A DNA stretch of 32,723 bases from IMG/VR virus record IMGVR_UViG_2061766007_002127. One strand, 5' to 3'. The notes under the pieces are model-generated. The model saw nothing but the letters and a program-made list of their open reading frames with translations. It did no database searches and had not been told where the DNA came from. The position numbers were made by a program, and so were the translations under genes. Positions 5,015 through 32,198 of the stretch are shown here, in pieces. Each line of letters starts with the position of its first letter. Positions within the stretch are counted from its first letter, which is position 1. Source of the stretch: an uncultured virus (IMG/VR IMGVR_UViG_2061766007_002127). Its lineage: Duplodnaviria; Heunggongvirae; Uroviricota; Caudoviricetes.

Positions 5015-5038
5015 CAAGCCAGAAAAACGGCGTATATT
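5011..5038 (+). promoter_or_regulatory. Promoter TTGACA-N16-TATATT
   Basis: Consensus match upstream of ORF 5093. Confidence 0.75.
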
Positions 5039-5092
5039 ATATGCGTCGAAGAAAAAGACGACTGAAAATCAACCAACAGCAAGGAGAAGAAT

Positions 5093-7987: not shown

Positions 7988-8015
7988 TTGAAAAATGAAA
8001 TTGACATTCCATATT
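7988..8015 (+). promoter_or_regulatory. Promoter TTGAAA-N16-CATATT
   Basis: Consensus match upstream of the helicase. Confidence 0.7.
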
Positions 8016-9966: not shown

Positions 9967-9978
9967 CGGAGTTTTGAA

Positions 9979-11299: not shown

Positions 11300-11302
11300 A
11301 CG

Positions 11303-13621: not shown

Positions 13622-13890
13622 GCAAGCTGGACAACATATTCGAAATCGGCGACGTGTTCAAGCCGATGCGCGTGCTGATGATAGGGGTCGTGGACGGCGA
13701 GACTGCCACCACGGACATATCGGACGGCTTCGCAATTGTGAGGAGGTCGTTCATACCAGAGGTCTGCCACGAAAGGTGCCAGGTGATTGAATGCAACAGC
13801 CACGATTTCTCCGACATGGACGGCGAGTGCCTTGTCGTATCGGACAGGTGCCCGTACTACACGGAGGCTTTCATGATGGATGTGAGGAAG
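13618..13890 (+). CDS. Cys-rich CPYYxE family protein (end in gap)
   Basis: DISDGFAIVRRSFIPEVCHERC...RCPYYTEAFMMDVRK. Paralog of 16272. Confidence 0.7.
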
Positions 13891-14462
13891 NNNNNNNNNN
13901 NNNNNNNNNNNNNNNNNNNNNNNNNNNNNNNNNNNNNNNNNNNNNNNNNNNNNNNNNNNNNNNNNNNNNNNNNNNNNNNNNNNNNNNNNNNNNNNNNNNN
14001 NNNNNNNNNNNNNNNNNNNNNNNNNNNNNNNNNNNNNNNNNNNNNNNNNNNNNNNNNNNNNNNNNNNNNNNNNNNNNNNNNNNNNNNNNNNNNNNNNNNN
14101 NNNNNNNNNNNNNNNNNNNNNNNNNNNNNNNNNNNNNNNNNNNNNNNNNNNNNNNNNNNNNNNNNNNNNNNNNNNNNNNNNNNNNNNNNNNNNNNNNNNN
14201 NNNNNNNNNNNNNNNNNNNNNNNNNNNNNNNNNNNNNNNNNNNNNNNNNNNNNNNNNNNNNNNNNNNNNNNNNNNNNNNNNNNNNNNNNNNNNNNNNNNN
14301 NNNNNNNNNNNNNNNNNNNNNNNNNNNNNNNNNNNNNNNNNNNNNNNNNNNNNNNNNNNNNNNNNNNNNNNNNNNNNNNNNNNNNNNNNNNNNNNNNNNN
14401 NNNNNNNNNNNNNNNNNNNNNNNNNNNNNNNNNNNNNNNNNNNNNNNNNNNNNNNNNNNNNN

Positions 14463-14805
14463 CTGTCTTGAGATATGCAGAAAATGTGACAGGCATCTTG
14501 TTGTGAAATGCCAGCCAAGTTGGACTGGCGACAACGATGTCCATCTGCTGAATTGCTTCACCGAAAACCAATATGGGCAATGGAGAGGATTGCATTTGAA
14601 CAATCCTTCATTTGACGCCTGGACTCTTGACGAGAACGGAGAGTTTGTCAAGATAGGAAAGCCAAAGGAGAAAATCGAGCTTTCCAGCGACGACATTCAT
14701 CGGATATTGTTTGAAGACAAGCATAAGTTCGAGCATCTTCTTGATTTTGATGGCACGACGTGTAAACTCGGTCTTGAACTTCAAATGACGGAGTGGAGCA
14801 AATGA
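14463..14805 (+). CDS. CxxC...E-x-QMxEW family protein (start in gap)
   Basis: CLEICRKC...CKLGLELQMTEWSK*. Confidence 0.7.
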
Positions 14806-15155
14806 AAAATGAATTTCTAAAAACATTTTGTGCAAATTGTGGCAGAAAGCCTGTCTTTAGACGCCTGAAAAACGGTGATTTCATGTTCGAGGCGTGTGTC
14901 AAAAACAATGCCTACAAGGATTATGCAAAATGCTATGACGCCAGTAAAAGGAATGCAATTGTTACGTTTAATTCAGAAAAAAGAAGGCTTGTCAGTCTAG
15001 GTGAAGAGTTTGGAGAAAAGATTGCAGGCAACTTGAACTCATCGCTCGATGCCGATGAAATCAGTGACAAGAGATTCTTTGAATTGATGTTTAGTTGGAA
15101 TCAACATTGTCCTTTCTTTTTCGAGTTGCAGATGATGGAGTGGAGCAATGATTGA
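14802..15155 (+). CDS. CxxC...CPFFFE family protein
   Basis: FCANC...HCPFFFELQMMEWSND*. Confidence 0.7.
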   Translation: MKNEFLKTFCANCGRKPVFRRLKNGDFMFEACVKNNAYKDYAKCYDASKRNAIVTFNSEKRRLVSLGEEFGEKIAGNLNSSLDADEISDKRFFELMFSWNQHCPFFFELQMMEWSND

Positions 15156-15647
15156 ATCAATGCAACCTGATTCCGTGGACATCGTGGTGTCTGCCGTGTC
15201 CAGTGGNNNNNNNNNNNNNNNNNNNNNNNNNNNNNNNNNNNNNNNNGTCGCCGTGATTCGCTTCCACGAAGTCGGCATGGGGCAGTTCTTCAGGACGGTC
15301 GTGGATGCCTGCGAGGGGACTGCGTTCGGAGTCGCCGACCTGCTGTTCTGCAGGATGGGCGAGAGGTTCGCAGAGCCAGTGGTCGTGTTCTGCAGGAAGG
15401 ACGAGATTATGACGTTCGTCGCGAACAAGAAGCAGTCGTCCGAGTTCGGGACTGGTCAGAAGCTGTACTCCCCGTTCTACAACGTGCTGGACGCATTCGG
15501 CGGCGACACGCTCGCCAGNNNNNNNNNNNNNNNNNNNNNNNNNNNNNNNNNNNNNACATCTTCTGCTCGGACTGCCAGACGACGGTTTCTGCGAGGTCGC
15601 ACGGGATGAAGCACATCGGGATTCAATTCAGCAAGGAGGTCGAATGA
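15148..15647 (+). CDS. Degenerate N4/N6 DNA-methyltransferase-like protein (gapped)
   Basis: MQPDSVDIVVS..., VLDAFGG, HGMKHIGIQ resemble beta-class MTase motifs, but SPPY/DPPY is replaced by SAVS. Confidence 0.45.
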
Positions 15648-16261
15648 GGGTGCGCCTAGGTCATGTCAGCAATTCGAGCACAAGCTCGTTCCTCGTGGCA
15701 TTCAACGACGTGGACGACTTCAGGTGCGTCAGCGACAGGTTCGGATACGACTTCTTCATGAACACGCTGAAGGCGAGTGCGAGGAAGCCACCAGTCGGCG
15801 AGGAGGACATCATCGACATCGTGGCGCGATGCCTGGGCAAGTGGCTCGTGTCATACGGGATGTTCCACTACAGGAAAATCCACAACATGCACGACTACGG
15901 CGGCGACAGGGACGTTTTCCTGAACGTGGTGTCGTCGCTCGGCGGCGACGGGTTCGACATGTCGCTCGAACGTGACATCGAGGCGATGGTCGAGGCAGGC
16001 GTTTCGGAGATTGAGGGCGAAATCGACAACCTGTACGAAATGAAGTGCAGGGTGTCCGACGTGGTTTCGAGATACGGGACGGAGGCGATGATGCTAGCCA
16101 TGCAGGTGGTCGGCTCGATGCTTTCGAGATACGGGAAGTTCGTGCTGTTCGACGTGAGGGTCGACAACGAGCTCGCAGACGAGTTCGTGTCGAATTTCAT
16201 GCCGAATGCGAGGATGCTGAACGAAGGTCGCTACGTGATAGCAGATGCGTTCAGCGAATGA
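15644..16261 (+). CDS. SNSSSSSF-motif family protein 3
   Basis: MRVRLGHVSNSSTSSFLVAFNDV...FMP. Confidence 0.8.
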   Translation: MRVRLGHVSNSSTSSFLVAFNDVDDFRCVSDRFGYDFFMNTLKASARKPPVGEEDIIDIVARCLGKWLVSYGMFHYRKIHNMHDYGGDRDVFLNVVSSLGGDGFDMSLERDIEAMVEAGVSEIEGEIDNLYEMKCRVSDVVSRYGTEAMMLAMQVVGSMLSRYGKFVLFDVRVDNELADEFVSNFMPNARMLNEGRYVIADAFSE

Positions 16262-16271
16262 GTGGTATTGC

Positions 16272-16610
16272 ATGACGAGAGGAAATTCTGGAAGCCGAGC
16301 GTCGCGTCGCAGCATATGGTGTGACCCCGAAATCGCAACGCAGATGCTCAAACCACGGATGTTCTGCCTGACGTTCTTCAAGCAGACAAAGGACGGCGTT
16401 TCCATCGTCAATCCGTGCATTGAAGACATTTCCGACGAGTTTGCAATTGTGAAGAAGGAGTTTCTCAAGGAAATATGCCTTGAGAGATGCGAGATATTCG
16501 AGTGCGATTTTCAGAAATTCGAGGATTCGGACGAGAGAATGCTCATAGTTTGCAAGGACTGCCCATATTATGCAGAGGCAGTCGTCAACGATGTGAGGAA
16601 CGGAAGATGA
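16272..16610 (+). CDS. Cys-rich CPYYAE family protein
   Basis: EDISDEFAIVKKEFLKEICLERC...DCPYYAEAVVNDVRNGR. Start uncertain. Confidence 0.7.
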   Translation: MTRGNSGSRASRRSIWCDPEIATQMLKPRMFCLTFFKQTKDGVSIVNPCIEDISDEFAIVKKEFLKEICLERCEIFECDFQKFEDSDERMLIVCKDCPYYAEAVVNDVRNGR

Positions 16611-17222
16611 AGACAAGGAACGGATATGTAAGCAATTCCAGCAGCACGTCTTTCCTGATTGTGTACAATGACATGGGCGCGTTTGACAGATTCAGGGAGG
16701 CAAGAGGATATGAATATCTTGAGAGCCACTTGAATTGCGACAGGAAGTACAAGGAGATTGCTGGCGACGAGGACAGGAACATAGAGGCGTTCTTCAATGA
16801 ACTTGTCGAGGGGTTCGCAGGAGAGTACGGGGAATATCTCTATGCGAAGAGCCATTGCGTGTACACAGACGGCATGTGGAGCCTTGAGGACGAGTTGAAA
16901 AAATACATGCTCGACGACACGGTGTATTCTGGGGCGAGAGGTCTTGCATCGTCCGTCGAGGCGATTGTCGGGCAATGGGATGATTCCGAGGAAATGCGCG
17001 ACTGGAAGGTTGNNNNNNNNNNNNNNNNNNNNNNNNNNNNNAGACCTTCTTGTTCTGCAGGTTCTGGAGTCCGTAAGGTCGAAATGGAAGAACATATGCT
17101 TGTTCGAGGTGGGCGATGATTCCGAATACGGGGACTACATCGAGCACACGTTCATGCCGAGGGTCATATCACATGGCACGGGCGCAAGTGGATTCGCAGG
17201 CTCGGACATAAGCCATCATTGA
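16607..17222 (+). CDS. SNSSSSSF-motif family protein 4 (gapped)
   Basis: MKTRNGYVSNSSSTSFLIVYND...EVGDDSEYGDYIEHTFMP...ISHH*. Confidence 0.8.
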
Positions 17223-19212: not shown

Positions 19213-19240
19213 TTGACTTTTCGGGAATTCGGCGTATATT
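19213..19240 (+). promoter_or_regulatory. Promoter TTGACT-N16-TATATT
   Basis: Consensus match; the block GGCGTATATT is shared with the promoters at 2923 and 5011. Confidence 0.75.
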
Positions 19241-19271
19241 GTATGGAACCGAAACCGAAAAGGAGGCTTTT

Positions 19272-21147: not shown

Positions 21148-24013
21148 ATGGCTTACAATCAGTCCGACGAGATTTTCATAGCGATGCACAAGGACGACCC
21201 AGAGGCGTTCTACGCGAAGATACCATACGACAAGCTTCCGAACATCCACCGAATCGGAGGGAAGTGGATGCAGGCTGGCAAGGAGTGGAGGTTCCCTCTC
21301 GACGACGAGATATGGGCGAAGTTCCAGAAGGAGTTCGCCCCAGAGTTCGCTGCTGGCAAGGTGCATAAGGACTTCGCGTTCCTGCTCGCCTTCGACAGGA
21401 GGCACAAGGACTTGCAGAACTTCCTGTCGTTCAAGGAAGTGGCGCTGAAGGACGAGCCGACGGACTTCGGGGTGGAGGGGGTCGGTCTGGACGGCAAGAA
21501 CTGCCTGTTCAACTACCAGAGATGGGGAATCAAGTGCGGGCTGAGCGTCGGCGACGGGTTCCTGATTGGGGATTCAATGGGATTGGGGAAAGCCGAGGTT
21601 GTTGACAACAGGTTGTTTACTCCGAAAGGAAGAAAACGGATTGGCGACATTGCAGTCGGCGATGAAGTCATTGGAAGCAATGGGCAGGCTTGCAATGTGA
21701 CTGGAGTGTTTCCACAAGGAATGAAGCCTGTCTATAAAATGACGTTTTCCGACGGGTATTCCATNNNNNNNNNNNNNNNNNNNNNNCTGGACGGTGTTTA
21801 CGACTTTAGGGGAAAATCCTGTAACGTTGACCGTTAAGGACATGCTTGACGAGAACAAGACGATAGAGCATTATGGAACAGGTCATAATTCCGTGAAGAA
21901 GTACGAGTACAGGACATACTACAAATGCCCGAACGGAGACGGTCATTGGCAGATACCAGTTGTGCAACCGATGCGATTTGACAGGAACGAGCAGTTGCCG
22001 ATAGAGCCTTATCTATTTGGGGCATTGATTGGCGACGGGCATTTCATGAAGCATCAGGTCGATGTCACTGAAAACGCAGGTGATTTCGATGAAATGTTCG
22101 CAGGATACATTCAAAATGGATACTTGAATGCGCATGAAAAGAAAACGAACAACTCGAATTCGAGGGTTGCCGTGTTTCAGGCAGGCGACATCATGGATGC
22201 ACTTGGTCTTGGATGCAAAAAGTCATGGGAGAAATTCATTCCAGACTGCTACAAGTATTCGTCCGTTGAAGACAGGCTTGAACTGTTGCATGGTCTGATG
22301 GACACGGACGGTCATTGCCAGAAGCGAAACAAGAACAGGCATAATGACAGCATGTTTGTCGCCACCGAATATTGCTCCACGTCAGAGCGACTTGTCGATG
22401 ATGTGGCAGAAATCGTCCAGACGCTTGGTGGAATCGCAAGGAAGCATTCGAAGAGAACGCATTATACCGAAAACGGAGTTCGCCATGAATGCAGAACTGC
22501 ATATCGCCTGAACATCAAGTTGCCGAGTGGGATGAATCCGTTTAAATTGAGGAGAAAGGCAGATGCCTGCAATACGCCGTTGAAATACCATGTGGCGCGT
22601 GTCATAAGGAACATAGAATACGTTGGAGAAAAGGAGTGCGTGTGCATCATGGTCGATGCCCCAGACCATTTGTATGTGACGGAACATTGCATTGTCACGC
22701 ACAACACTATACAAGGACTCGGAATTGCAAAGGAACGGATGAACCGTGGAGATGTCCATAATTGTCTTATTGTGTGTCCTGCATCGCTAAAGTACAACTG
22801 GCGCGACGAGATAGCCAAATTCTTGAATATGGATGCTCTTGTCATAGGTCACAAGTGCAAAAACGCGCAGGACAGGGAGAAGCAGTGGATAGCCACTGGA
22901 TATCCGTTCAAGATTGTCAACTACGAGACTGTTGCAAGGGACTTGTACTGCGAGCCCAAGAAGAAGGACAACAGGATTTCATGCTATAAGGCTGTGCTGA
23001 ATTCATTTGACATAGTGATTTTCGATGAAATACACATGCTCAAGCATCATTCATCACAGCGTACTCTTGCCTGCCGTCAGTTCAACGCGAAGTACCGTAT
23101 TGGTTTGACTGGCACTCCACTTGACGGGCGCCTTGAGGAAATCCACTCCATCTTCCAGATACTCAAGCCTGGTCTGTTCGTGTCCAAGCAGAAGTTCATG
23201 GAGAGGTATGCCGAGTACGACTACTTCGGTGCCGTCAAGGGATACCACCACATCAAGGAAGTGTCAGACAAGATATCTCCATACTACTTGCGCAGGCTCA
23301 AGGAAGAGGTGCTGAAGGACCTGCCACCGAAACTGCACAAGGACATGATGGTTGAGCTGTCGCCGAAGAACATGAAGGCATACAAGGAACTGGTCAAGAA
23401 GAAGAACGAAATCACCGAGAATGCCTCTGCGATGGAGCTTGTCATGAGGGCGAGGCAGTTCCTCGACTTCCCTGAAATACTGGGGATGCACAACAGTTCC
23501 GACAAGTACGCAGTGTTCAAGGAGCTTCTGGACGAGCTTGTGAAGGACAACAACCACAAGGTAATCGTTTTCTCGCAGTACACGAACACGTTGCACTGGC
23601 TGATGAAGAACCTTGAGACCGAGTACAAGGACATTCTTGTCATAGACGGCTCCGTCGACCCAGAGGAGCGTCAGGAGATATGCAAAAGATTCAATTCAGA
23701 CCCGAAGTACAGGATTCTGCTTGGGAGCAACGCGATGAGCACGGGGCTTAATCTTCAAGCTGCCGACGATGTAATCAACTATACTGCAGACTTTTCCCCT
23801 GCAGTGATGAAGCAGAGGGAGGACAGGGCTTACAGATGCGGCGTCACCCACATGGTAACTGTCTATGATTTCGTCTGCATGGACACTGTCGATGAAAGAG
23901 TGAGGAACATCCTTACGAGAAAGCAGACTGTCAACAATGCCCTTCTTGGAGAGAATGTGGATTCATTCGAGATAGGGGAGATGAGCGCGATGGAGATATT
24001 GAGTTGTCTGTGA
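21148..24013 (+). CDS. SNF2-family (DEAD/DEAH SF2) helicase containing an intein
   Basis: LFNYQ, GDSMGLGK|TIQ, IVCPASLKYNW, DEIH, LTGTP, RRLKEEVLKDLPPK, VFSQY, TGLNLQ, QREDRAYR. Confidence 0.93.
21592..22705 (+). mobile_element. Class-3-type intein with LAGLIDADG homing endonuclease, inserted in Walker A
   Basis: Begins at Ala (AEVVDNRLFTPKG) and ends CVCIMVDAPDHLYVTEHCIVTHN/T. LAGLIDADG motifs are PYLFGALIGDG and LLHGLMDTDG. GC content is lower than the flanks. Confidence 0.9.
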
Positions 24014-24102
24014 TTGTTTCATTTATATTCGTCATATATGTATAATTGTTGTTTTATGGGTCAGATGAAACAATGATTGAACATTTAAGTCCACAAGGAC
24101 TG

Positions 24103-24150
24103 AAAGCCTGGAATATAGTTGCTGACCCCAACTGTGTTTCAGGCTTTTTT
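24103..24150 (+). terminator. Leader terminator-like hairpin upstream of the endonuclease
   Basis: 19-bp stem AAAGCCTGGAATATAGTTG/CAACTGTGTTTCAGGCTTT with a T-tract, downstream of TTCATT-N17-TATAAT (24018-24046). Confidence 0.7.
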
Positions 24151-24166
24151 ATTGGAGAATAAAACG

Positions 24167-25920
24167 ATGAATCAGGAATCAATCGACTGGTTGAAGAAGC
24201 GTTTTGGAGATGGAAGAAAAATCACAAAGAATCTGATGAAAAGCATTCCAGATGCAATAATGGATGATATTGAAAATGAATTTATGTTGTATCCAGAATA
24301 TGGGACAATAAAGCATGTAATATATTGTGTGTCAAACAACCTTTTTCTTGGTAGATGTTTGACTTGTGGAAAAACATTGACATATTATCAGACTTTTTTT
24401 GGTCATAATCAATATTGTTCAAATGACTGTATTGATAAAGAGCACAAGGGGTTAATGATAAAAAAAGCATTTATGGAAAAATATGGTGTAGAGCATATTT
24501 CTCAATTGGAGCGAATCAAAGAGCAGAAAAAACAAAAAAGCATTTCAAGATATGGAACAGAAAATGTGTTTCAGAATAGTGAAGTGCAACAAAAATATAA
24601 AGAAACAATGATGCAAAGGTATGGGACGGAAGTACCATTGCGAGCTGATGAAATAAAAGAAAAAATAAGAAAAACAAACATTGAAAGATATGGATGTGAA
24701 TATGCTTCACAAAGTGAAGATGTAAAGAAAAAAATAGTCAATACCAATATTGAAAGATATGGTGCTTCAAATCCTGTACAAAATCAAAAGATTCTTGAAA
24801 AANNNNNNNNNNNNNNNCGTTGATAATGTTTTTAAAAGCAGTGAAATCATTCGAGCTAATCTTGACAGAACATATGAAGAATTGAAAGAACGTTTCAAAG
24901 ATTATGTGGTGCCAATGTTCACAAAGGAAGAATATACTGGTCATTATCATGATGAAATATATCGCTGGAAATGTGTAAAGTGTGGTAATGAATTTGAATC
25001 AAGGATATATAATACAAATCATCTAAAGGAAGTCGCGGAAGCAATTCCACGTTGCTTGGAATGTTATCCATTTGTATCTGGATATTCCAATGAAGAAAAG
25101 GAAGTTGTTGAATTTATCAAATCAATTTACAATGGAGAAATAATTGAAAATGACACATCAATTATTTTTCCATATGAAATTGACATCTTGATACCAGATA
25201 AAAATGTTGGCTTTGAATATAATGGAGTTTATTGGCATTCTGAAGAGTATATGAAAAATAATGATTATCATTTGGAAAAGACAAATAAATGCAAGAAAAA
25301 AGGTATTTGCTTAATTCATTTGTTTAATACTGAATGGAATGACAAGAAGGATATAGTAAAGGACAGGATTTGCTCGATTCTTGGATTGAACAGGAATAAA
25401 ATATATGCGAGGAATTGCATTGTCAAGAATGTTAAATCGAATGTCGCAAATGAGTTCCTTGAAAAGAATCATTTACAAGGTGGTGACCATTCTTCTATTC
25501 GGGAAGGACTTTTTTTCAATGATGAATTGGTTGCTGTAATGACTTTTGGCAAACCACGTTTTGATAGAAAACACGATTGGGAGATGATACGATTCGCTTC
25601 GAAGCTTGGAATGAATGTGGCAGGNNNNNNNNNNNNNNNNNNNNNNNNNNNNNNNNNNNNNTGTTTCATATGCCGACAGAAGGTATTCGGAAGGAAACTT
25701 ATATGGAAGGCTTGGATTTAAATTGGAATCCGTTTCAAGTCCTAACTATGTATGGGTAAAGAATAGCACTGTTCTCACAAGGTATCAATGCCAGAAGCAT
25801 CGGTTGGCAAAGGTGCTAGGCAATGGATATGACAAGGACAAGACTGAAATAGAAAATATGCATGATAATGGATGGCATCGTGTGTTCGATTGTGGAAATC
25901 TTGTATATGTGCTTGAATGA
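24167..25920 (+). CDS. Free-standing Hef-like/Vsr-type (PD-(D/E)XK) putative homing endonuclease (gapped)
   Basis: AT-rich island with repeats of (K/R)YGxE/SN, CxxC pairs, SNEEKEV...EIDILIP...GFEYNGVYWHS, then an IYARNC...NHLQG...SYADRR...DCGN tail. Confidence 0.8.
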
Positions 25921-25999
25921 TTCAAGCCATANNNNNNNNNNAGATAGGGGAGATGAGCGCGATGGAGATACTCAGTTGCCTGTGATTTTTCCTTAAATA

Positions 26000-26182
26000 A
26001 AATCTCATGAAATCTGTCAAACATATTGAAATATTTTCAAGCGACTTGAAATTCTATTTTCATGCCTCATATTGATTATGAATGGAAATCGGCTTTCTGA
26101 CTTTATTTCCATTCATCTTAATTGAGATTGTCATCCATGAAATGTCAGATTTTGCCAGATTTCATGGATGTGAGTTGAAACC
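26000..26182 (+). repeat. Direct repeat copy 1: promoter (26046-26073) plus structured element
   Basis: Aligns with ~27822-28007; the 3' block GATTTTGCCAGATTTCATGGATGTGAGTTGAAACC is identical. Confidence 0.85.
26078..26182 (+). ncRNA. Putative structured RNA (three hairpins, kissing loops), copy 1
   Basis: Two perfect 12-bp stems with 15-nt loops containing complementary TCTGAC and GTCAGA. Begins 5 nt after the -10 box. Confidence 0.55.
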
Positions 26183-26244
26183 AGACCGTATAATGCATAT
26201 GCGTTTGCTTTAAGACCAGTCGCATTCGGAAAAGGAGGAAAACC

Positions 26245-26563
26245 ATGGACATGAACGTGAGAATCGCGAGGGAGCTCGTGAAGGTTGCCAAGGAGCTTGT
26301 CGCTGGGAATGCCAAGCCGATGGAGAGGCTGNNNNNNNNNNGTCATGAGCCCTAGTTCGAACATGGATTCCCACAGGAAGCTCATCGACAGCAACGACAG
26401 GTTCGCTGCCATCCAGATGCCACCGAAGTTCTATCTCCAGACCAAGTGGAAAACGGACGTGCTGTTCGACGCGATGTTCGTCGGGATGTACACCGAGGAG
26501 AAGCTTAAGAAGACGGTGGATTTGCTGAAGGAGATACTTGGCGAGGAGCCTGTCAAGGGATGA
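26245..26563 (+). CDS. Hypothetical protein with RIARELVKVAKELVA leader (gapped; alternative allele at 26600-26816)
   Basis: AGGAGG RBS, then MDMNVRIARELVKVAKELVAG...GEEPVKG*. Confidence 0.7.
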
Positions 26564-26819
26564 CGGATGAAAGGCGAGCTGGACAAGGTNNNNNNNNNNC
26601 AAGGGAATCGTCTATAAGACGATAAACAGGGTGCGTGGAAAGCACTACTGGACGCGCTCGGAGCAGAAGAACATGGACAACGTGTCCGAGGACGAGTGCA
26701 TCATCATCGTAAACCACAGCAACAACATGGTTTCCCACAGGAAGCTCATCGACAGCAACGACAGGTTCGCTGCCATCCAGANNNNNNNNNNCGGCGAGGA
26801 GCCTGTCAAGGGATGACGG

Positions 26820-27317
26820 ATGAAAGGCGAGCTGGACAAGGTTGTTGAAATCCATGCGATGCTGTCGAAATTCGCGTTCGGGGCGTATCTTGGAAACGGA
26901 TGCTACGGGCATGGGGATGACGAGGAGCTTGTCTCCGACTATTCGATGCAGTCGCCACGGCAGGTGCTGGAATCGAGGCAGGGCACGTGCATTGACATCG
27001 CAGGATGCGTGAAGTATCTTCTGGACAGGGAGGGGATACGGAACTTCGCCGTGTATGGAATTTCCGACGACGGCTCCGAATTTCCTCCGAACCACTGCTT
27101 CAATGTGGCGTTTGTGGATGGAAGGATGTACCTTGTCGATGCGTCGGATGGAGTGGATGTCTCCGAATACGGCTCTCTGGATGACGTGAAGAGATTCTAT
27201 TCGGGAAGGCATCCAGAGCTGAAAGGAGCCGTTTTCCACAGGCTTGACTCGTTTCCACCTGCTGGAAGCTCGTTCTGGAATTTCGTGGAGTATGCAGATG
27301 GATGCCGTGAGATTTAG
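26820..27317 (+). CDS. Transglutaminase-like (papain-fold Cys-His-Asp) protein
   Basis: SPRQVLESRQGTCIDIA...NHCFNVAFVDGRMYLVDAS. Confidence 0.75.
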   Translation: MKGELDKVVEIHAMLSKFAFGAYLGNGCYGHGDDEELVSDYSMQSPRQVLESRQGTCIDIAGCVKYLLDREGIRNFAVYGISDDGSEFPPNHCFNVAFVDGRMYLVDASDGVDVSEYGSLDDVKRFYSGRHPELKGAVFHRLDSFPPAGSSFWNFVEYADGCREI

Positions 27318-27376
27318 CAGGATGCAACAAGAAGCCACAGGAACGGAAGACCACGCTTTAAACCAGGAGAAGCACA

Positions 27377-27820
27377 ATGGACAGGATTGAAAGGATTGCG
27401 ATGGACATCGTGGCAGGGGCGAAGGTCGTTTACTCTGCCGTTCTGATAGATGAAACGGACAGGAAGAGTATTGTCGAGAATGCCAGGCACAAAAATCTGT
27501 ACGGAGACCATGTGACGCTGTGGTACTACGGTGGCGCAGAGATGGACACGCCGTATGCAGGCGAGCGCGTCGAATTGAATCTGACTAGGCACTTCGCCGA
27601 CGACAGGGGGGAGGCTTGGCTCGTGTCGTGTGGAAACGAGCATGTGCGTGAAATAAAGGAGCCTTCGCAGGTTCTCCATGTCACGGTGAGTTGCGCCGAC
27701 GGGACGAAGCCAGTCTACAGCAACGAGCTCGTGAGGCACTCGTTCGCAGATGAGACGGAGGGGTTTCCCGTCCATGGTCGCATAGCGTACTACATGACCG
27801 ACGGGACGTGGTTCCATTAG
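27377..27820 (+). CDS. 2H phosphoesterase
   Basis: Two HxT motifs, DHVTL and LHVTVSCADGTKPVYSNEL. N-terminus is MDRIERIAMDIVAG. Confidence 0.8.
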   Translation: MDRIERIAMDIVAGAKVVYSAVLIDETDRKSIVENARHKNLYGDHVTLWYYGGAEMDTPYAGERVELNLTRHFADDRGEAWLVSCGNEHVREIKEPSQVLHVTVSCADGTKPVYSNELVRHSFADETEGFPVHGRIAYYMTDGTWFH

Positions 27821-27821
27821 A

Positions 27822-28007
27822 TAAAATCCACCAAAATCCATAAAAACATGTTGGAATATGTTTGAATGACTTGAATTTTGGTTTTGGTGCCCCATATTGA
27901 CTATGCTTGGAAATCAGCTTTCTGGCTTGGCTTTCAAGTTCTCAATACGAGATTGTCATCCACTGAATGTCGGATTTTGCCAGATTTCATGGATGTGAGT
28001 TGAAACC
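27822..28007 (+). repeat. Direct repeat copy 2: promoter (27871-27898) plus structured element
   Basis: Diverged copy of 26000-26182, not adjacent to any gap. Confidence 0.85.
27903..28007 (+). ncRNA. Putative structured RNA, copy 2
   Basis: Stems are retained with substitutions (GCTTGGAA/TTTCAAGT; TCTC/GAGA; CATCCA-TGAA/TTCA-TGGATG). Loop TCTGGC can pair with GTCGGA or GCCAGA. Confidence 0.5.
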
Positions 28008-28314
28008 TAGGATGAACTTCGAGCACTGCAACAACTGCAACAACTTCAGGGGCGAGATAAGCCTGTCGTTCACGTCGTTCGACGGGAGGCTCGCCTTCTA
28101 TCTCAACGGGAGGAGGAGGGGGTACTCGTGCCTGTTCGTGACCGACCTGAAGGGTATTTGCGACATCGTGAAGCCACAGGAGAGGGCGAGGTGGTTCATG
28201 ATGAACGGGCACAGGCAGTTCGACGAGCTGAAGAGCCACGTGGTGGACATCATCGAGCCTGACGGCGACTGCCCGTTGAGGACGGAGATACTGATAGAGT
28301 CTTGGAATCAATAG
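27967..28314 (+). CDS. CxxC...CPxxxE family protein (start may be the later Met, MNFEHC)
   Basis: HCNNC...DCPLRTEILIESWNQ*. Confidence 0.7.
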   Translation: MSDFARFHGCELKPRMNFEHCNNCNNFRGEISLSFTSFDGRLAFYLNGRRRGYSCLFVTDLKGICDIVKPQERARWFMMNGHRQFDELKSHVVDIIEPDGDCPLRTEILIESWNQ

Positions 28315-28328
28315 CATGGAGTAGGATT

Positions 28329-28547
28329 ATGGGAAAGAAGGGAAAGCCTTTCTGGCTGGTCGCGCTGGTGTCGATTTTGATTATAGTGCTGTGTTTCGGA
28401 TTTTTCTGGCTGGAGATAGTGGCGTTCCAGTGGCTTCTGGCTCAGTTCGGTCTGGAGGTCGGGTTCTGGAAGGCGTTCCTGATGCTACTCGTCATCGATG
28501 TCCTGTTGCAGAACATCACGGCTAGGTCTGCTGGAAACAGGCGCTGA
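28329..28547 (+). CDS. Small two-TM membrane protein
   Basis: MGKKGKPFWLVALVSILIIVLCFGFFW...FWKAFLMLLVIDVLL. Confidence 0.75.
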   Translation: MGKKGKPFWLVALVSILIIVLCFGFFWLEIVAFQWLLAQFGLEVGFWKAFLMLLVIDVLLQNITARSAGNRR

Positions 28548-28612
28548 AGTCATTTTCCGCTTATTTCCAGCCGAATTGTCATGACAGTGAAAATCGACGG
28601 AGGACGCATTTA

Positions 28613-29738
28613 ATGGACAGGAACATAAAAATCGCCAGGCGACTTGTCAGAATCGCGAGGATGCTCGTCTCGGAGAGGGTTCTCGACGAGGCTGTCCAGA
28701 AGGGGGAGTCGCTTCCAGAGGAAAAGAAGAAGGAGGCTCTGGACATCGTCACAGAAATCGTTGACGAATCTGGAAATCCCGAGGCGAAGAGGCTCCTTGA
28801 GCAGATTGTGAACAGCTCCTCCTGCAACGGGAGGAGGATGGTCGCCTTCGACTTCATCGAGAAGATAATGAAGTTCAGTGGGGACAGCCAGCTCGTGAGG
28901 GCGTTGCTGGTCGCAGCGGCGATGATGGGGGCGATTTCGACTGCAGAGGCGAAGAACATATACTTCAAGTCTGGCGACGAGATAAAGGCACTGCAGGTCG
29001 AGGATGGCAAGTACAATGAGACAGAGCAGGAGAGGATGGACTTCGAGCAGGCTGCGAAGCACGCAGATGAGCTGTCAAGGCAACACGCTGGCGCATCGCT
29101 GGATACCAGTGGCGTCGAGATAGCCGACGAGGGGAATGCCGTCTACATCACCGTCACGTTCAGGAAGGACCAGTTCAGGGATGCAGTGGCGAACGCGAGG
29201 AGCGAATTCGACAGGCAGTATCCGAGCNNNNNNNNNNNNNNNNNNNNNNNNNNNNNNNNNNNNNNNNNNNNNNNNNNNNNNNNNNNNNNNNNNNNNNNNN
29301 NNNNNNNNNNNNNNNGCTTCGTCGCATTCGCAGGCTCAGAATCCAGAGAAGAAGCAGACCGTGAAGAAGAAAAATTCGCAGAAGCCGTCGAAGTCCAGCG
29401 AAAGGAGTCAGGATGACGAGACCGTCAGGCAGTTCAGGGGCATAAGGAACCCAGACGGCAAGTTCGCGATGGAGCTTGCAGAGAAGGTCTCGTCTGGAAA
29501 CGCTGGCGACGTAATCGTCGAGGAGAAGGACGGCGTGAGCTACATTGCAGTGCGTGGAAAGGACGGAATGGGGAGAATGGATGCGCTGGAATATCTTGAA
29601 TCTAAAGCACAGGATGCAATGCTGAGTAAGTACGGCAATAATCTGACGATACGTGGATGGAACAAGTCTGGATACGCATTCGGTCAGAACCGTGAACTGA
29701 AGGCTTTGACATACACGTTCAACACACCAGGCGAATAG
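28613..29738 (+). CDS. Hypothetical protein with IARRLVRIARMLV leader (gapped; could be two genes)
   Basis: MDRNIKIARRLVRIARMLVSE...; after the gap the frame ends ...TFNTPGE*. Confidence 0.7.
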
Positions 29739-29767
29739 CATTTAACCATAATGGAAGGAGGATTGAA

Positions 29768-30283
29768 ATGAACAAAAACATCAGGATTGCAAGGCAACTC
29801 GTTAGAATCGCGAGGATGCTCGTCGCGCTGGATGCAGGCGACGGGTACACCGTGAAGGGTCTGATGGCGAAGATGTCCGACAGGATTCTGGGCTACGTGA
29901 AGGAACATTTACCGAAGACTGGAATGGTTTCCATCAGAGGGACGCAGAAGAACTTCGGGTTCACGTTCACCGTCGATGACAGTGGGGACGAGCCGTCGAT
30001 AAGCATCAAGGCGAAGGACCTTGACCCGACTGCAGAGCCTGCCGTCAGGAATTCGGACTACGCCGACATCAAGGAGCAGGTCGTCGGGATGGTGTACAAG
30101 TGCGCAGATGAAGCAGTGTCGTCGCTCGTGGTCGACGACGAATTCACGGACTATGCCCAGATAACGGTTCAGGAAGACCAATGCAAGTGCAACGACGAGG
30201 ACGTGTTGCTCGATATCGTGTCGCAGTCTGCCGTGAAGAAGCTGTTCGGCAACGATGGAATCGATGTGACGCTTGAAAAGTGA
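29768..30283 (+). CDS. Hypothetical protein with IARQLVRIARMLVA leader
   Basis: GGAGG RBS, then MNKNIRIARQLVRIARMLVALD... Confidence 0.8.
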   Translation: MNKNIRIARQLVRIARMLVALDAGDGYTVKGLMAKMSDRILGYVKEHLPKTGMVSIRGTQKNFGFTFTVDDSGDEPSISIKAKDLDPTAEPAVRNSDYADIKEQVVGMVYKCADEAVSSLVVDDEFTDYAQITVQEDQCKCNDEDVLLDIVSQSAVKKLFGNDGIDVTLEK

Positions 30284-30306
30284 GTCGGATTGATTGAATC
30301 CGTATC

Positions 30307-30342
30307 AAAAGCCAGAGTGGAATGACGCGCTCTGGCTTTTTT
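30307..30342 (+). terminator. Intrinsic terminator
   Basis: AAAAGCCAGAG...CTCTGGCTTTTTT. Confidence 0.8.
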
Positions 30343-30361
30343 CATGCCATATTCTGGTCAT

Positions 30362-30892
30362 ATGGAGACAATATCGGAAATATCGTATGGAGACGCAGTG
30401 GACTTCCTTCTTCCAAGGCACTACTCTGGTCGCAAGCCGTGCGTGAGCAGGGCGTTCGGATGGGTCGTCGACGGGGAGCTGAAGGCTGTCATAACCTACG
30501 GGAAGCCCGTGAACAGGTGCCTCTGCACGGGAATCTGCGGCGAGGAGTACGCATCGCACGTCTACGAGCTGAACAGGATGTGCCGTATCGACGACTTCCA
30601 CAAGCCGTTGTCGCATTTCGTGTCGAGGACGCTGAGCCTGCTGAAGCCGTTGGACTGGATTNNNNNNNNNNNNNNNNNNNNNNCCACCACGGATACGTGT
30701 ACCAGGCGTGCAATTTCATGTACACGGGCGTGTCATGCACGTCGTTCAAGGACAAGTATAATAGCGGCGCGAACACCCACAACAGGCACAACGGCTCGTT
30801 CTCGGTGGAGACGGACGACTGCTACGTGGAGCGTTCCCCGAAGCACAGGTACGTGTACTTCTGCACTGGGTCGAAGTCCATGAGGAAGAGGT
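30362..30892 (+). CDS. mom: Mom-like (GNAT-fold) adenine modification enzyme (end in gap)
   Basis: RHYSGR, ITYGKP, YELNRM, HHGYVYQACNFMYTG and PKHRYVYF match the Mu Mom family motif order. Confidence 0.8.
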
Positions 30893-30964
30893 NNNNNNNN
30901 NNNNNNNNNNNNNNNNNNNNNNNNNNNNNNNNNNNNNNNNNNNNNNNNNNNNNNNNNNNNNNNN

Positions 30965-32198
30965 GGGCAACGTCCATCCAGATGAGATAAAGGTCGAGGT
31001 GCCGCAGGAGAAGAAGGAGTCTGCATACGGCGACATCAAGGCTGTTCCAGTCATCGAGGCAGTCGACGGCATACGCTACGACTTCAACTCTGGTCTGAGG
31101 GTGTACTTCCCCCAGAACGACAAAAAGTACCATCTGAAGTTCTCGGACGCAGACTCTGGTCTCGTCATGTACGACGCAGACGCCAACCCTGGCACGGTCG
31201 TTACATCTGTGAAGAAGTACTACATACGCTACCGTTTCGAGGTCACGTTGCAGGGGACTGGCGAAAAGGTGTTCGAGCACACGATGGACATGAGGGGCAG
31301 GGATGTCGTCGTGCAGTTCCCAGTGAACACGATAGGCGACTCTGTCGGCTGGTTCAGCTACGTCGAGCGCTTCCAGCAGAAGTTCGGATGCCACGTGAAG
31401 CTCGTCATATCGGACTTCCTGAAGAACCTCGTCGAGAAGCAGTACCCACAGTTCGAGTACATCAGGAAGGAGGACACGCCCGACTGCAACTCGTATGCGA
31501 TGTTCTACCTCGGTCTGTTCTTCAAGGGCGACACCAACTTCCAGCCGATTGACTTCAGGCTGGTCGGTCTGCACAGGACGGCTGGGTACATCCTCGGTCT
31601 GCGCACGAAGGAGGAGCTGGAGGACATTCCTCCACGTTTCGACCTGTCTGCTCCACGCCAGATTAAGGAGAAGTACGTCGTGATTTCGTGCAAGGCTTCT
31701 GCCCAGTGCAAGTTCTGGAACAACCCGTTCGGATGGGACACGGTCATCCGTTTCCTGAAGGACAACGGGTACAAGGTCGTCTGCATCGACAAGAACAGGG
31801 TGTACGGGGCTGGGACGACGTACAACCAGTTGCCATGGGGCGTCGAGGACTACACTGGCGACATCCCGTTGCAGGAGCGAATCAACGTCATCAAGGACGC
31901 AGACTTCTTCATCGGGCTTTCGTCTGGTCTGACGTGGCTTGCATGGGGATGCAAGGTGCCAGTCATCCTGATTTCTGGCTTCTCGCTTCCGAACACGGAG
32001 TTCTACACGCCGTGGAGAATCATCAACTACCAGGCGTGCATCGGGTGCTGGGACGACGTCAGGGAGGATTTCGACCATAAGGACTACTTCTGGTGCCCAA
32101 GGNNNNNNNNNNNNNNNNNGTGCTCAAGGCTGATTCCACCAGAGCAGGTGCTCAACGCGATAAAGTCCGTCCCGACGTTCAGACCGAAGGAAGGCTGA
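30965..32198 (+). CDS. Autotransporter-type protein O-heptosyltransferase (Aah/TibC, BAHT family); start probably in gap
   Basis: GIRYDFN, KKYYIRYR, FPVNTIGDSVGWF, QPIDFRLVGLHRTAGYILG, KFWNNPFGW, PLQER, FFIGLSSGLTWLAW, ISGFS..TEF.TPWR and the C..CWDD...WCPR...CSR iron-finger cysteines. Confidence 0.9.

Follow-up and report, generated by a model that had tools for sequence, protein, structure and literature searches.

Two collinear copies of an intergenic unit of about 190 nt lie on the plus strand of the window, the whole 32,723-nt stretch of viral DNA analysed here (Table 1). Read 5′ to 3′, each unit consists of stop codons in three frames, an AT-rich stretch whose two RAAATCY motifs are phased one helical turn apart, a promoter-like site, a leader of three hairpins and a 3′ block that does not differ between the copies. 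The opening stop of copy 2 is a TAG at 27818-20, and all three frames are stopped within 16 nt in copy 1 and within 25 nt in copy 2. The two leaders keep a constant offset of 1825 and are 88% identical over 112 columns, the final 35 shared columns being identical. A covariance model built from both copies scored them at 138.7 and 126 bits (copies 1 and 2, respectively), the runner-up being the opposite strand of stem 3 itself (15.2 bits). The right boundary of copy 1 is marked by a third context, a loose end from run X3, which loses similarity at 26180/26181. The duplication had been recognised in the preliminary description, but the extent given there was too short, since the unit measures about 190 nt and includes the promoter and the region upstream of it.

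Table 1. Coordinates of the two cassette copies, their parts and neighbouring features in the window
Feature	Position	Strand	Remarks
Cassette copy 1, entire unit, 190 nt	25993..26182	+	Collinear with copy 2; a run X4 contig skips exactly this unit
5′ end of unit, copy 1	25993..26015	+	Stop of the upstream frame, TAA 25994-25996; two forward RAAATCY (25999, 26009)
Promoter-like site, copy 1	26046..26073	+	TTGAAA, 16-nt spacer, CATATT; 9/12 matches in consensus scan
Hairpin 1, copy 1	26078..26116	+	12-bp stem; four extra pairs possible within the loop
Mini-hairpin, copy 1	26116..26127	+	TCTT-AATT-GAGA; both copies are predicted to form it, copy 2 one register off
Hairpin 3, copy 1	26132..26170	+	12-bp stem, 15-nt loop; loop and 3′ arm carry inverted RAAATCY
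3′ block, identical in both copies	26166..26182	+	Contains GGATGTGAG (26166-26174), Shine-Dalgarno-like
Start of gene downstream of copy 1	26245..26331	+	Own strong Shine-Dalgarno site
Cassette copy 2, entire unit, 191 nt	27817..28007	+	Skipping contigs in runs X4 and X5; inverted copy in run X3
Promoter-like site, copy 2	27871..27898	+	TTGAAT, 16-nt spacer, CATATT; hexamers conserved; unlisted by consensus scan
Hairpin 1, copy 2	27905..27939	+	8 pairs, 2 of them G-U, plus inner helix
Mini-hairpin, copy 2	27940..27952	+	TCTC-AATAC-GAGA
Hairpin 3, copy 2	27957..27995	+	With bulged C
Gene behind copy 2, 100 aa	28012..28314	+	True start ATG 28012, from cassette-less contig
Terminator-like hairpin (30307-30340), then TTTTTTCATGCCATATT	30307..30357	+	TTTTTTCATGCCATATT resembles the cassette -10 region

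The -35 and -10 hexamers of the promoter-like site are conserved between the copies, and the spacer is fixed at 16 nt while its sequence varies; a third variant, on a loose end of run X4, has the same TTGAAA and the same spacer. A 38-nt degenerate pattern covering promoter and start matched the two copies only, and none of 100 shuffles gave any match. The shorter pattern TTGAA-N17/18-CATATT occurs four times on the plus strand of the window and not at all on the minus strand, and its two further sites, at 7988 and 9354, stand before genes. These features support a predicted sigma-70-like promoter in the cassette, in agreement with the earlier proposal that the element is promoter-driven. Judged from its sequence, the region at 30307-30357 may be a partial third copy of the cassette without the leader.

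The leader comprises about 105 nt downstream of the promoter, with two 12-bp stems carrying 15-nt loops and a mini-hairpin. In copy 1, stem 1 (ATGAATGGAAAT/ATTTCCATTCAT, 26078-26089/26105-26116) and stem 3 (CATCCATGAAAT/ATTTCATGGATG, 26132-26143/26159-26170) are each complementary at 12 of 12 positions with 15 nt between the arms; of the 25 inverted-repeat pairs listed for the window, no others are perfect over 12 nt with arms that do not overlap. Stems, loops and mini-hairpin are all present as earlier described. The accompanying claim that pairing in copy 2 is largely kept also stands, except that stem 3 is kept not by substitutions but through a bulge (one base inserted, one deleted). Two pairs of copy 2 are altered on both sides and still paired (A-U to C-G and A-U to U-A), five one-sided changes leave standard pairs (G-U or A-U) and five pairs are broken; the pair-retention values were reached by 126 of 500 shuffles, and the pair changes carry no statistical weight because just two sequences are compared. 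Hairpin 3 is the most conserved of the leader hairpins, its loop and flanks being invariant between the copies.

Folding of the 93-nt core gave minimum-free-energy z-scores of -2.84 for copy 1 and -2.17 for copy 2. The corresponding energies were -27.2 and -27.3 kcal/mol on the plus strand, and -27.1 and -19.3 kcal/mol on the minus strand; the divergence of copy 2 from copy 1 has kept the folding of the plus strand only, and the three-hairpin fold first proposed for that strand is retained in both copies. In both copies hairpin 1 keeps its pairing from position 26080 (predicted +1) onward, and the two pairs lost at the foot of the hairpin in copy 2 lie upstream of this position. Both observations, a fold retained on the plus strand only and pairing that is maintained from the predicted +1, speak for a transcribed 5′ leader rather than for a symmetric DNA operator. 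A scan of 26074-26244 and 27899-28011 found no terminator-like site after the leader, and copy 2 abuts the next start codon, both of which indicate a 5′ leader. Of the two possibilities raised in the preliminary description, a leader or a discrete ncRNA of about 105 nt, the former is therefore favoured and the latter is not supported: the element is best read as a leader and not as a stand-alone RNA gene.

The gene at 26245 belongs to a family of three paralogues, with the others at 28613 and 29768, and the product of 28012..28314 matched no family in Pfam or PHROGs. At the leader end, the Shine-Dalgarno-like GGAUGUGAG is half buried in hairpin 3. For pairing of the GGATGTGAG block to a generic anti-Shine-Dalgarno sequence the energy is -8.6 kcal/mol, compared with -7.4 to -15.5 kcal/mol for seven annotated starts; the block ends 12 nt before ATG 28012, and after the end of copy 1 come 62 further nt that include the gene's own site.

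Both cassettes sit in an ORFan segment of about 5 kb without counterpart in two close relatives (329 and 255 kb). Positions 25807-30975 of the window have no counterpart in L013 and L014, two relatives with 94-95% protein identity in the SNF2 helicase, and the cassette was not found by BLAST or by the covariance model in the entire records of these two phages. In other cattle-gut metagenomes, contigs bearing the cassette have loose ends with differing flanks, and up to eight contigs per run lie over one cassette position, compared with one over most of the flanking-gene positions listed. Contigs lacking either copy were also recovered: run X4 contig 10 (2154 nt) corresponds to 27376-27814 and then to 28010-29011 with three other letters between, an X5 contig likewise lacks copy 2 and joins 27813 to 28010, and another X4 contig joins 25992 to 26181 without copy 1. 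In the cassette-less X4 contig 10, the stop codon of the upstream gene overlaps ATG 28012 as ATGA. In an X3 contig, 27818-28007 is found as an inverted copy adjoining 28330. The cassette is a discrete multi-copy unit, present in some genomes and absent from others. The 329-kb relative carries 20 promoter cassettes with a common -10 and leader, 11 of which have AAAATC at most 75 nt upstream. On a loose end of run X4, terminator, -10 and leader are combined in a way similar to the arrangement around 30307. The preliminary description had missed both the discreteness of the cassette and its presence or absence.

We interpret the unit, at somewhat better than even odds, as a portable intergenic expression cassette of about 190 bp, one of a family that occurs in multiple copies within a single lineage of very large phages of the cattle gut. 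This interpretation builds on direct observations, namely the anatomy, the two copies, the many contexts, both orientations, the presence or absence between collinear genes and the retention of the fold on the plus strand only; the function of the leader we infer. The cassette would fire rightward and give the downstream ORFan genes a transcript of their own, with the three-frame stops ending translation of whichever gene lies upstream. The leader would begin directly with hairpin 1, followed by the mini-hairpin and hairpin 3. 5′-terminal stem-loops can stabilise transcripts, and on these grounds hairpin 1, at the extreme 5′ end, may shield the transcript from 5′-end-dependent decay. Hairpin 3 with its invariant loop may act in recognition or occlusion and so adjust translation or processing, and the family probably spreads and is lost via recombination during phage replication, as do the PeSL cassettes of T4-type phages. 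Several points weigh against this explanation. Where the transcript starts, which way it runs and whether there is an RNA at all are matters of prediction, and the promoter of copy 2 escapes the consensus scan; two full sequences give covariation no statistical power, and among the differences listed, some population variants, judged against copy 1, would break predicted pairs unless compensated, for instance 26082 A>T (hairpin 1) and 26092 G>A (inner helix). The 12 nt between the Shine-Dalgarno-like block and ATG 28012 is longer than usual, and the block is unused in copy 1. Moreover, loss of the cassette alone with both flanks kept is unlike recombination between two PeSL-type cassettes and points to insertion or deletion of the unit itself.

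Other readings of the same features were weighed against the expression cassette. That the 3′ block is conserved as coding sequence, either for a micro-protein (MSDFARFHGCELKP...) or for the N-terminus of the downstream protein, is hardly credible: the MSDFARFHGCELKP frame is open in both copies and its sole difference is synonymous (TCA to TCG), but it stops after 23 codons in copy 1 and fuses to an unrelated gene in copy 2, two gaps fall within its 40 nt in one X6 contig, and the cassette-less contigs show the downstream gene starting at 28012. The micro-ORFs complement the anti-Shine-Dalgarno sequence at -4.0 and -4.3 kcal/mol, against -7.4 kcal/mol or lower for the seven annotated starts, and no protein in a 5.8-billion-cluster database, searched at near and longer lengths, shared three words with the 43-aa leader ORF. 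On the ATG 28012 start, the all but absent Shine-Dalgarno complementarity and the lack of a related protein, the objection to the RNA reading anticipated in the preliminary description, that this overlapping frame explains the conservation, fails. The same description had envisaged a stand-alone structured ncRNA of about 105 nt, with loops 1 and 3 kissing within one molecule (switch-like) or between molecules (like phi29 pRNA), which we regard as very improbable. Loop 1 of copy 1, TCTGAC (26096-26101), is indeed the exact complement of loop 3, GTCAGA (26144-26149), so that six Watson-Crick loop-loop pairs are possible, a result given by 0.9% of loop shuffles, and copy 2 keeps six loop pairs including two G-U, or a perfect TCTGGC/GCCAGA using one stem base. 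However, the Watson-Crick run in copy 2 is reduced to 5 nt (3.8% of shuffles) and the 6-nt run with G-U is matched by 36% of shuffles; both loops can pair internally in the minimum-energy folds, and the loop 3 motif also matches the upstream RAAATCY, which offers an alternative reason for its sequence. The complement is real, its significance in copy 1 is weak and copy 2 has partly lost it; with two sequences lending no statistical power, a kissing function is not supported. Nor does a terminator or other 3′ end signal follow the leader, copy 2 running into the start codon. Rfam gave no match at the gathering score over the window, and over 25950-28100 at E up to 10 it gave six weak matches, none of them a pRNA or riboswitch and the best at 19.2 bits against a threshold of 40, consistent with the earlier statement that the element was not recognised as a named family.

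The RAAATCY motifs raise the alternative that the unit carries DNA operators, in which a regulator from phage or host would bind the RAAATCY pairs to either side of the promoter and/or the GAAAT-N15-ATTTC inverted repeats beyond the start and shut the promoter, for example by looping or as a roadblock, with the RNA hairpins a by-product. The two cassettes, 381 nt together, account for 8 of the window's 34 RAAATCY, and their layout is the same in both: two forward motifs 10 nt apart upstream and two inverted motifs 10 nt apart about 148 nt downstream (AGATTTT at 26147 and AGATTTC at 26157, in the loop and 3′ arm of hairpin 3, in copy 1; GGATTTT at 27972 and AGATTTC at 27982 in copy 2). The motif, repeated on both sides of the promoter, had been absent from the preliminary description. 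Operators are also favoured by the single RAAATCY in the AT-rich homing-endonuclease island (1914 nt), by the copy-specific match of forward and inverted motifs (AAAATCT/AGATTTT in copy 1, AAAATCC/GGATTTT in copy 2), by the AAAATC repeats before 11 of the 20 promoter cassettes of the 329-kb relative, by the identical geometry of both inverted repeats and by GAAAT-N15-ATTTC, which is found twice, both times in copy 1, with 0.24 expected. Even so, the first inverted repeat of copy 2 is symmetric as DNA at 6 of 12 positions but paired at 9 of 12 when G-U is allowed, the minus strand of copy 2 loses 8 kcal/mol while the plus strand loses none, as would not be expected of symmetric protein sites, and no DNA-binding protein was recognised among the neighbouring genes. 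We consider this account unlikely as a replacement for the expression cassette, with which it can coexist as far as the RAAATCY motifs are concerned. A non-autonomous mobile DNA element modelled on IS200/IS605-derived elements or REP sequences, whose plus-strand hairpins would be recognised as single-stranded DNA by a transposase acting in trans and whose promoter would be cargo or a by-product, seems to us equally unlikely. Elements of these families have subterminal hairpins without terminal inverted repeats or target duplication, and they insert by a short conserved target and are excised precisely by a Y1 enzyme supplied in trans. Consistent with this model, the boundaries are sharp and reproducible in three contexts and both orientations are seen, presence or absence affects the cassette only and leaves the neighbouring genes intact, and neither terminal inverted repeats nor a target duplication were seen at the junctions; hairpin 3 stops 12 nt short of the unit's right end, the four RAAATCY, two in each orientation, are placed close to its two ends, TTCC stands within two bases of the left end in all three contexts (the two window copies and the inverted one of X3 next to 28330), and the fold asymmetry equally fits hairpins of top-strand DNA. 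Against it, the empty sites are imprecise (ATTTATT, seven letters, at site 1; ATC or TCTC at site 2), hairpin 1 lies 85 nt from the left end, and the conserved hexamers with a variable spacer imply a promoter under selection in its own right. No Y1 (HUH) transposase (PF01797) was found in three related phage records, in a search whose control gave matches in 6 of 14 genomes, or among the 37 window ORFs scanned with Pfam. By analogy with the put sites of phage HK022, the leader could also be an RNA that alters RNA polymerase in cis, bringing about processive antitermination or anti-pausing, and that is installed after every promoter copy. The cited accounts describe putL and putR as about 70 nt long and similar to each other in sequence, each with two long stem-loops immediately after an early promoter, so that a genome has more than one copy, and put RNA as a cis-acting antiterminator whose target in E. 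coli RNA polymerase is the zinc-binding domain of beta-prime (PMC9378689; PMC11658703). The anatomy is similar (PMC9378689), and the invariant loop and flanks of hairpin 3 fit a sequence-specific contact, yet the length differs (about 105 against 70 nt), and the sole strong terminator-like hairpin downstream (30307-30340) has the appearance of a natural operon end, leaving nothing obvious to read through; we judge this reading quite improbable.

A bolder version of the last two ideas, which we put forward as rather unlikely, is that the 190-bp unit is a self-contained mobile promoter of giant phages, of a new kind, or its leader a put-like RNA that reprograms the host polymerase. As a mobile promoter, the non-autonomous unit may insert beside TTCC between tightly coupled genes and deliver stops in three frames, a promoter and a structured leader, and its plus-strand hairpins and inverted RAAATCY may be mobilisation signals for an unknown phage enzyme. 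If either form were true, the phage could rewire how its accessory genes are transcribed insertion by insertion, and the finding would be considerably more important if the hairpins were mobilisation signals or a polymerase-modifying RNA. Giant gut and rumen phages carry hundreds of unknown accessory genes, and their transcriptional wiring is largely obscure. A module of stop, promoter and leader that separates two genes in one genome, and is missing from close relatives in which the same genes are translationally coupled, offers a concrete way into the question of how ORFan genes are acquired, lost and re-regulated in such phages, and the family is abundant in public cattle-gut data.

The cassette can be compared with several known systems. 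REP/BIME, IS200/IS605-derived, Correia and ultra-small mycobacteriophage MPME elements carry promoters or hairpins and can alter the expression of neighbouring genes; like them, the cassette is short, multi-copy and intergenic, occurs in both orientations, is present or absent and has internal hairpins, but it differs in having no terminal inverted repeats or target duplication, imprecise empty sites and no transposase found in the relatives or the window. With phi29 pRNA or a riboswitch leader it shares the character of a structured phage RNA with complementary loops, or of a structured 5′ leader. phi29 pRNA, however, is a single-copy, terminated RNA of small podoviruses, and the cassette has no Rfam match to such a family at E up to 10 and no recognisable ligand-binding core. 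The likeness to put lies in the anatomy, two long stem-loops behind a promoter in two copies that share sequence and fold, and in the logic of a leader acting in cis; the leader here is longer, has an extra mini-hairpin and is part of a mobile cassette. The closest known kind, by analogy, is the PeSL (promoter-early stem-loop) cassette of T4-type phages (Arbiol et al. 2010, PMC2839356; Comeau et al. 2014, PMC4122927). As described there, PeSLs are intergenic and run from an upstream stop codon in an AT-rich stretch to the start of the next gene; they contain sigma-70-like promoter boxes together with a stem-loop, placed at the promoter or inside it, which works as a terminator or attenuator and often has G and C tracts (PMC2839356). 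The present cassette likewise starts at an upstream stop codon, is AT-rich, carries sigma-70-like boxes and occurs in many copies in variable regions of small ORFan genes, where close relatives differ by indels at the modules. In contrast to the PeSLs of these accounts, it measures about 190 bp with a predicted transcribed leader of about 105 nt, has three AT-rich hairpins without a U-run downstream of the predicted start in place of a G/C-rich terminator, is flanked about its promoter by inverted RAAATCY and is alone gained or lost between intact genes. The PeSL 3′ end supplies both Shine-Dalgarno and start codon; in the cassette, the Shine-Dalgarno-like GGATGTGAG ends 12 nt before ATG 28012 in copy 2, and the gene after copy 1 has a site of its own. 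Found in a much larger, cattle-gut phage, the cassette extends the PeSL idea beyond the T4-type phages.

Re-reading of the sequence located both copies where the preliminary description had placed them, with the stems as it had read them. In copy 1 these are two 12-bp inverted repeats lying 15 nt apart, each with 15 nt between its arms; of the 25 inverted repeats listed for the window, no others pair perfectly over 12 nt with arms that do not overlap. Throughout the leader the copies can be aligned gap-free, always 1825 positions apart; farther upstream there is one single-base gap. Since the similarity runs from the upstream frame's stop codon to GAGTTGAAACC, the repeated unit is about 190 nt long and not 105 nt; the leader of ~105 nt described earlier does exist, but as a part of this larger cassette. 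A covariance model built from the two leaders matched these two alone in the window (138.7 and 126 bits), the next match, at 15.2 bits, being the reverse strand of hairpin 3.

Coordinates and parts of the two cassette copies
Feature	Position	Strand	Description
Repeated unit, copy 1	25993-26182	+	
Repeated unit, copy 2	27817-28007	+	
Upstream stop		+	TAA in copy 1, TAG in copy 2; ends the upstream reading frame and opens the unit
RAAATCY pairs, 10 nt apart	25999 and 26009; 27823 and 27833	+	Two forward motifs in each copy, upstream of the promoter
Promoter, copy 1	26046-26073	+	TTGAAA, 16-nt spacer, CATATT
Promoter, copy 2	27871-27898	+	TTGAAT, 16-nt spacer, CATATT
Leader		+	Hairpin 1, mini-hairpin and hairpin 3, downstream of the promoter
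Inverted RAAATCY pair, 10 nt apart			Hairpin 3 loop and 3' arm, both copies

Stop codons occur in all three frames within the first 16 nt of copy 1 and 25 nt of copy 2. The promoter hexamers and their immediate flanks are identical between the copies when read as -35 TTGAA(A/T) and -10 CATATT, and the spacer is identical at 9 of 16 positions; a third variant, found at a loose end in the cattle-gut metagenome run X4, again carries TTGAAA, with a different 16-nt spacer reaching the -10. A consensus promoter scan listed copy 1 at 9/12 and did not list copy 2. Counted on both strands of the window, all four occurrences of the pattern TTGAA-N17/18-CATATT are on the + strand; two belong to the cassettes, and the others precede the genes at 8014 and 9412.

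The 93-nt core of the leader in copy 1 folds equally well on either strand (-27.2 kcal/mol for + and -27.1 kcal/mol for -) because its stems are perfect palindromes. In the diverged copy 2 the + strand keeps its stability at -27.3 kcal/mol, and the - strand drops to -19.3 kcal/mol. The claim that compensatory or G-U changes preserve the pairing in copy 2 stands for the seven changed pairs that are still paired, two of them changed on both sides and five on one side with a standard G-U or A-U pair kept, but not for five others, which no longer pair. Of these five, two form the outer end of the hairpin 1 stem and lie upstream of 26080 and 27905, the expected transcription starts by virtue of being the seventh base after the -10 hexamer, which suggests that pairing is kept from the first transcribed base onward. 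The stem of hairpin 3 in copy 2 is kept by means of a bulge, its 5' arm having one base inserted and one deleted. Only two complete sequences of the element were obtained, so that the covariation test proposed earlier has no power (126 of 500 shuffles reach the observed values), and covariation statistics were rejected as support. Judged from the folds and pair changes, the divergence favours, short of being statistically established, selection acting on a single + strand, with RNA the simplest case.

The 3' block of the leader comprises 35 nt that are identical in both copies. Within it, GGATGTGAG has a pairing energy of -8.6 kcal/mol with a generic anti-Shine-Dalgarno sequence, compared with -7.4 to -15.5 kcal/mol for seven annotated gene starts. 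A stand-alone ncRNA, as first suggested, is not borne out, since the terminator scan found no terminator-like site after the leader and ATG 28012 begins five bases past the end of copy 2. Three other readings were discarded: hammerhead and other small ribozymes, for which there was neither an Rfam match at E up to 10 nor a conserved core by eye; intrinsic terminator or attenuator hairpins, as the U-run is absent and the terminator scan returned nothing; and leaderless translation from ATG 26078 or 26082, whose frames are unconserved between the copies and end at different stops.

The failure to recognise a named RNA family agrees with Rfam, which gave no match to the whole window at gathering thresholds and, for 25950-28100 at E up to 10, six weak matches (best 19.2 bits against a threshold of 40). 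Three exact-pattern scans of viral contigs yielded 1, 0 and 1 matches, both by chance, one being dismissed by reading and the other by the model, in which only the 17-nt seed scored. A scan of metagenome contigs gave eight loci, all one unrelated sequence, and a scan of genome contigs six loci, with no covariance-model match at E up to 1. No match to 25940-28320 was found by blastn in its distant mode against 50,697 phage records, and look-ups through neighbouring proteins led either to loci of only 29-39% identity or to no locus. BLAST and the covariance model found no credible match in the whole records of three related phages, where the best match (77% over 50 nt) lies within a coding region; the covariance search suggested in the preliminary description thus returned the two known copies only.

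Contigs of four independent metagenome runs were aligned to 25943-29200 at 80% likeness. At this relaxed likeness depth is not copy number and single joints need care, and with that proviso up to eight different contigs of one run lie over a single cassette position (26140 in X4, 27925 and 27930 in X5), against a single contig over most positions listed for the flanking genes. Among the loose ends are other upstream genes, a terminator hairpin directly before the -10, and other downstream sequences starting exactly past GAGTTGAA. A 2154-nt contig of X4 runs through 27376-27814 and 28010-29011 with just ATC between them, lacking cassette 2; a contig of X5 makes the same skip with TCTC between. 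Another X4 contig joins 25992 to 26181 through ATTTATT and so lacks cassette 1, a loose end of run X3 shows the same empty site, and a contig of X5 joins 25986 to 27377, with cassette 1 and its three genes gone. An X3 contig carries 27818-28007 inverted, adjoining 28330. The skips, the varied flanks and the inversion indicate a unit with sharp ends that occurs in many places and in both orientations, and the skip contigs show it present or absent between otherwise collinear genes. One further X4 contig (side 37) has a joint from 27882 to 26146, which goes back 1737 at 80% likeness and might mark the junction of a circle or of a duplication, or belong to a shorter family member.

A very large phage is the source of the window, which covers part of its genome. 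Genes in the window, by Pfam and PHROGs, include a split UvrD-like helicase, a radical-SAM protein, a dNMP kinase, an SNF2 helicase with a LAGLIDADG intein, a homing-endonuclease island, a Mom-like protein and a heptosyltransferase; no tRNA genes were found in it, and its best-matching sequencing runs carry the label bovine gut metagenome. Direct terminal repeats mark two IMG/VR phage records (329 kb and 255 kb) that share the SNF2 helicase at 94-95% protein identity and the common genes at 76-81% DNA identity. Both records lack 25807-30975, a stretch made up of the endonuclease island's end, a duplicate of the final 58 nt of the SNF2 gene, the two cassettes, about 10 ORFan genes, a terminator and the Mom-like gene; in these relatives the heptosyltransferase region comes no more than ~200 nt after the endonuclease gene. 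The cassette was not found by BLAST or the covariance model in either complete record. A separate family of 20 promoter cassettes lies on the minus strand of the 329-kb relative, in a small-gene block at 270-312 kb; all share the extended -10 GTGTATAGTATG, and most a short CA-rich leader; AAAATC lies within 75 nt upstream in 11 of the 20, as a tandem pair in 8. Repeated cassettes of promoter and leader are thus a general feature of the phage group, and the hairpin leader is one of the alternatives in this scheme.

Several other repeats were seen along the way. A second promoter-like class, GGCG followed by TTGAC(T/A)-N16-TATATT, precedes genes at 2923-2955, 5011-5043 and 19213-19245 of the window and resembles the GTGTATAGTATG -10. 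The 329-kb relative also carries a four-copy repeat of ~70-90 nt (L033-L049; 22111-22179, 71040-71109, 230296-230364 (-) and 249359-249450 (-)), consisting of two small GC hairpins and then TTTCATTGAAATTTGCAACTAT; its ATAGTTGC part recurs at the edge of the window's endonuclease island (hairpin 24103-24147), and the repeat may be tied to a homing endonuclease or intron. That island (24028-25941, 31-33% GC) carries a homing-endonuclease gene split into two or three parts (PHROGs homing/HNH endonuclease; DUF7487) and is bracketed by a 58-nt repeat of the SNF2 gene 3' end (23970-24027 and 25942-25999, 86% identity); it seems to have arrived with its own copy of that gene end; the close relatives L013 and L014 have the island and not the second repeat. 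The N-terminal third of the SNF2-family helicase itself (21794-24013) contains a LAGLIDADG/Hint, intein-like insert (Pfam LAGLIDADG_3, Hom_end); the DNA match of L014 is broken over 21591-22696. Within 26340-26842, 26360-26417 recurs as 26724-26781 (98%) and 26540-26589 as 26793-26842 (100%); contigs of X3 and X6 skip 253 nt from 26539 to 26793, X4 is arranged differently, several 10-N masks lie inside, and the duplication is either strain-specific or an assembly artefact. Three paralogous ORFan genes at 26245, 28613 and 29768, with no Pfam or PHROGs match, share the N-terminus M-D/N-x-N-I/V-K/R-I-A-R-x-L-V-R/K-I/V-A-R/K-x-L-V, and contigs of other runs have in-frame indels near 28670-28675, just past this region. 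Small-gene paralogue families with conserved starts or zinc-ribbon-like CxxC (D1, D6, D7, D19) occupy 11298-16680 and 9721-12908, with a near-perfect 126-nt tandem duplication at 12266-12516. The Mom-like DNA-modification gene (30322-30990), with long N masks inside, is absent at this place in the relatives; the adjoining TibC-like heptosyltransferase (30999-32198) is common to them.

We propose that the cassette would give the genes on its right their own host-polymerase transcript, which hairpin 1, at the extreme 5' end, would protect from 5'-end-dependent decay; among Gram-negative and Gram-positive bacteria alike, 5'-terminal stem-loops guard against such decay. Hairpin 3, whose loop is invariant and whose Shine-Dalgarno-like block is half buried, could tune translation or processing, or bind a factor, and the RAAATCY pairs may be regulator sites, which is compatible with the rest. 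We hold this mechanism as a whole with moderate confidence.

Among five rival explanations the weightiest is that the cassette is a hairpin-ended, non-autonomous mobile element. Hints in its favour are TTCC at the left flank in all three contexts and the absence of terminal repeats and of a target duplication; against it, the cassette-free sites lack precision, and neither three related records nor the 37 window ORFs scanned gave a Y1 transposase. Next in weight, the conserved features could be pure DNA operators. The two cassettes' 381 nt hold 8 of the 34 RAAATCY occurrences in the window, compared with one in the 1914 nt of the AT-rich endonuclease island, and the upstream and downstream motifs match copy by copy (AAAATCT-AGATTTT in copy 1, AAAATCC-GGATTTT in copy 2); the strand-specific stability of copy 2 speaks instead for RNA. 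A polymerase-modifying RNA like put, the HK022 antiterminator RNA, ranks third, the features of put being those described in PMC9378689.

The kissing-loop ncRNA of the preliminary description comes fourth. The loops of copy 1 do contain a 6-nt Watson-Crick complement, reached by 0.9% of loop shuffles, but the best run in copy 2 is 5 nt (3.8% of shuffles), or 6 nt with G-U allowed, which 36% of shuffles reach. In predicted folds loops 1 and 3 can each pair internally, and loop 3 is equally describable as two inverted copies of the upstream RAAATCY motif; by sequence, a kissing-loop interaction is conceivable but not supported beyond a weak coincidence. Least weight goes to a micro-protein encoded by the 3' block. 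Both copies keep the frame MSDFARFHGCELKP open and differ in it by one synonymous change; it spans 23 codons in copy 1 and continues into an unrelated gene in copy 2. Against it, Shine-Dalgarno complementarity at its start is just -4.0 and -4.3 kcal/mol, and the 43-aa leader ORF gave no candidate in a large protein database, where no entry of near or longer length shares three words with it. Most tellingly, in cassette-free contigs the stop of the upstream gene overlaps ATG 28012 as ATGA, indicating that the downstream protein starts at 28012, so that an overlapping MSDFARFHGCELKP frame does not account for the conservation.

The preferred reading, a mobile-looking promoter cassette with a structured leader, has its closest known counterpart in the promoter-early stem-loop (PeSL) cassettes of T4-type phages. 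According to PMC2839356, PeSL modules open with an upstream stop codon in an AT-rich region, contain a sigma-70-like promoter and a stem-loop, and close with a Shine-Dalgarno site and start codon; they are concentrated in hyperplastic regions, and indels between close relatives coincide with them. The cassette shares these points save the defining function of the stem-loop and, less clearly, the 3' end: its Shine-Dalgarno-like block stops 12 nt short of ATG 28012 in copy 2, and copy 1 is followed by another 62 nt that include the next gene's own site. The stem-loop of a PeSL is a G/C-rich terminator located at the promoter or inside it, whereas the cassette has three AT-rich hairpins in its predicted transcript, none of them terminator-like, and the loss of a cassette alone is unlike the outcome expected of recombination between two flanking PeSLs. 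Because it differs in both hairpin function and cassette-only loss, we regard the cassette as a variant of the PeSL kind rather than as a PeSL member.
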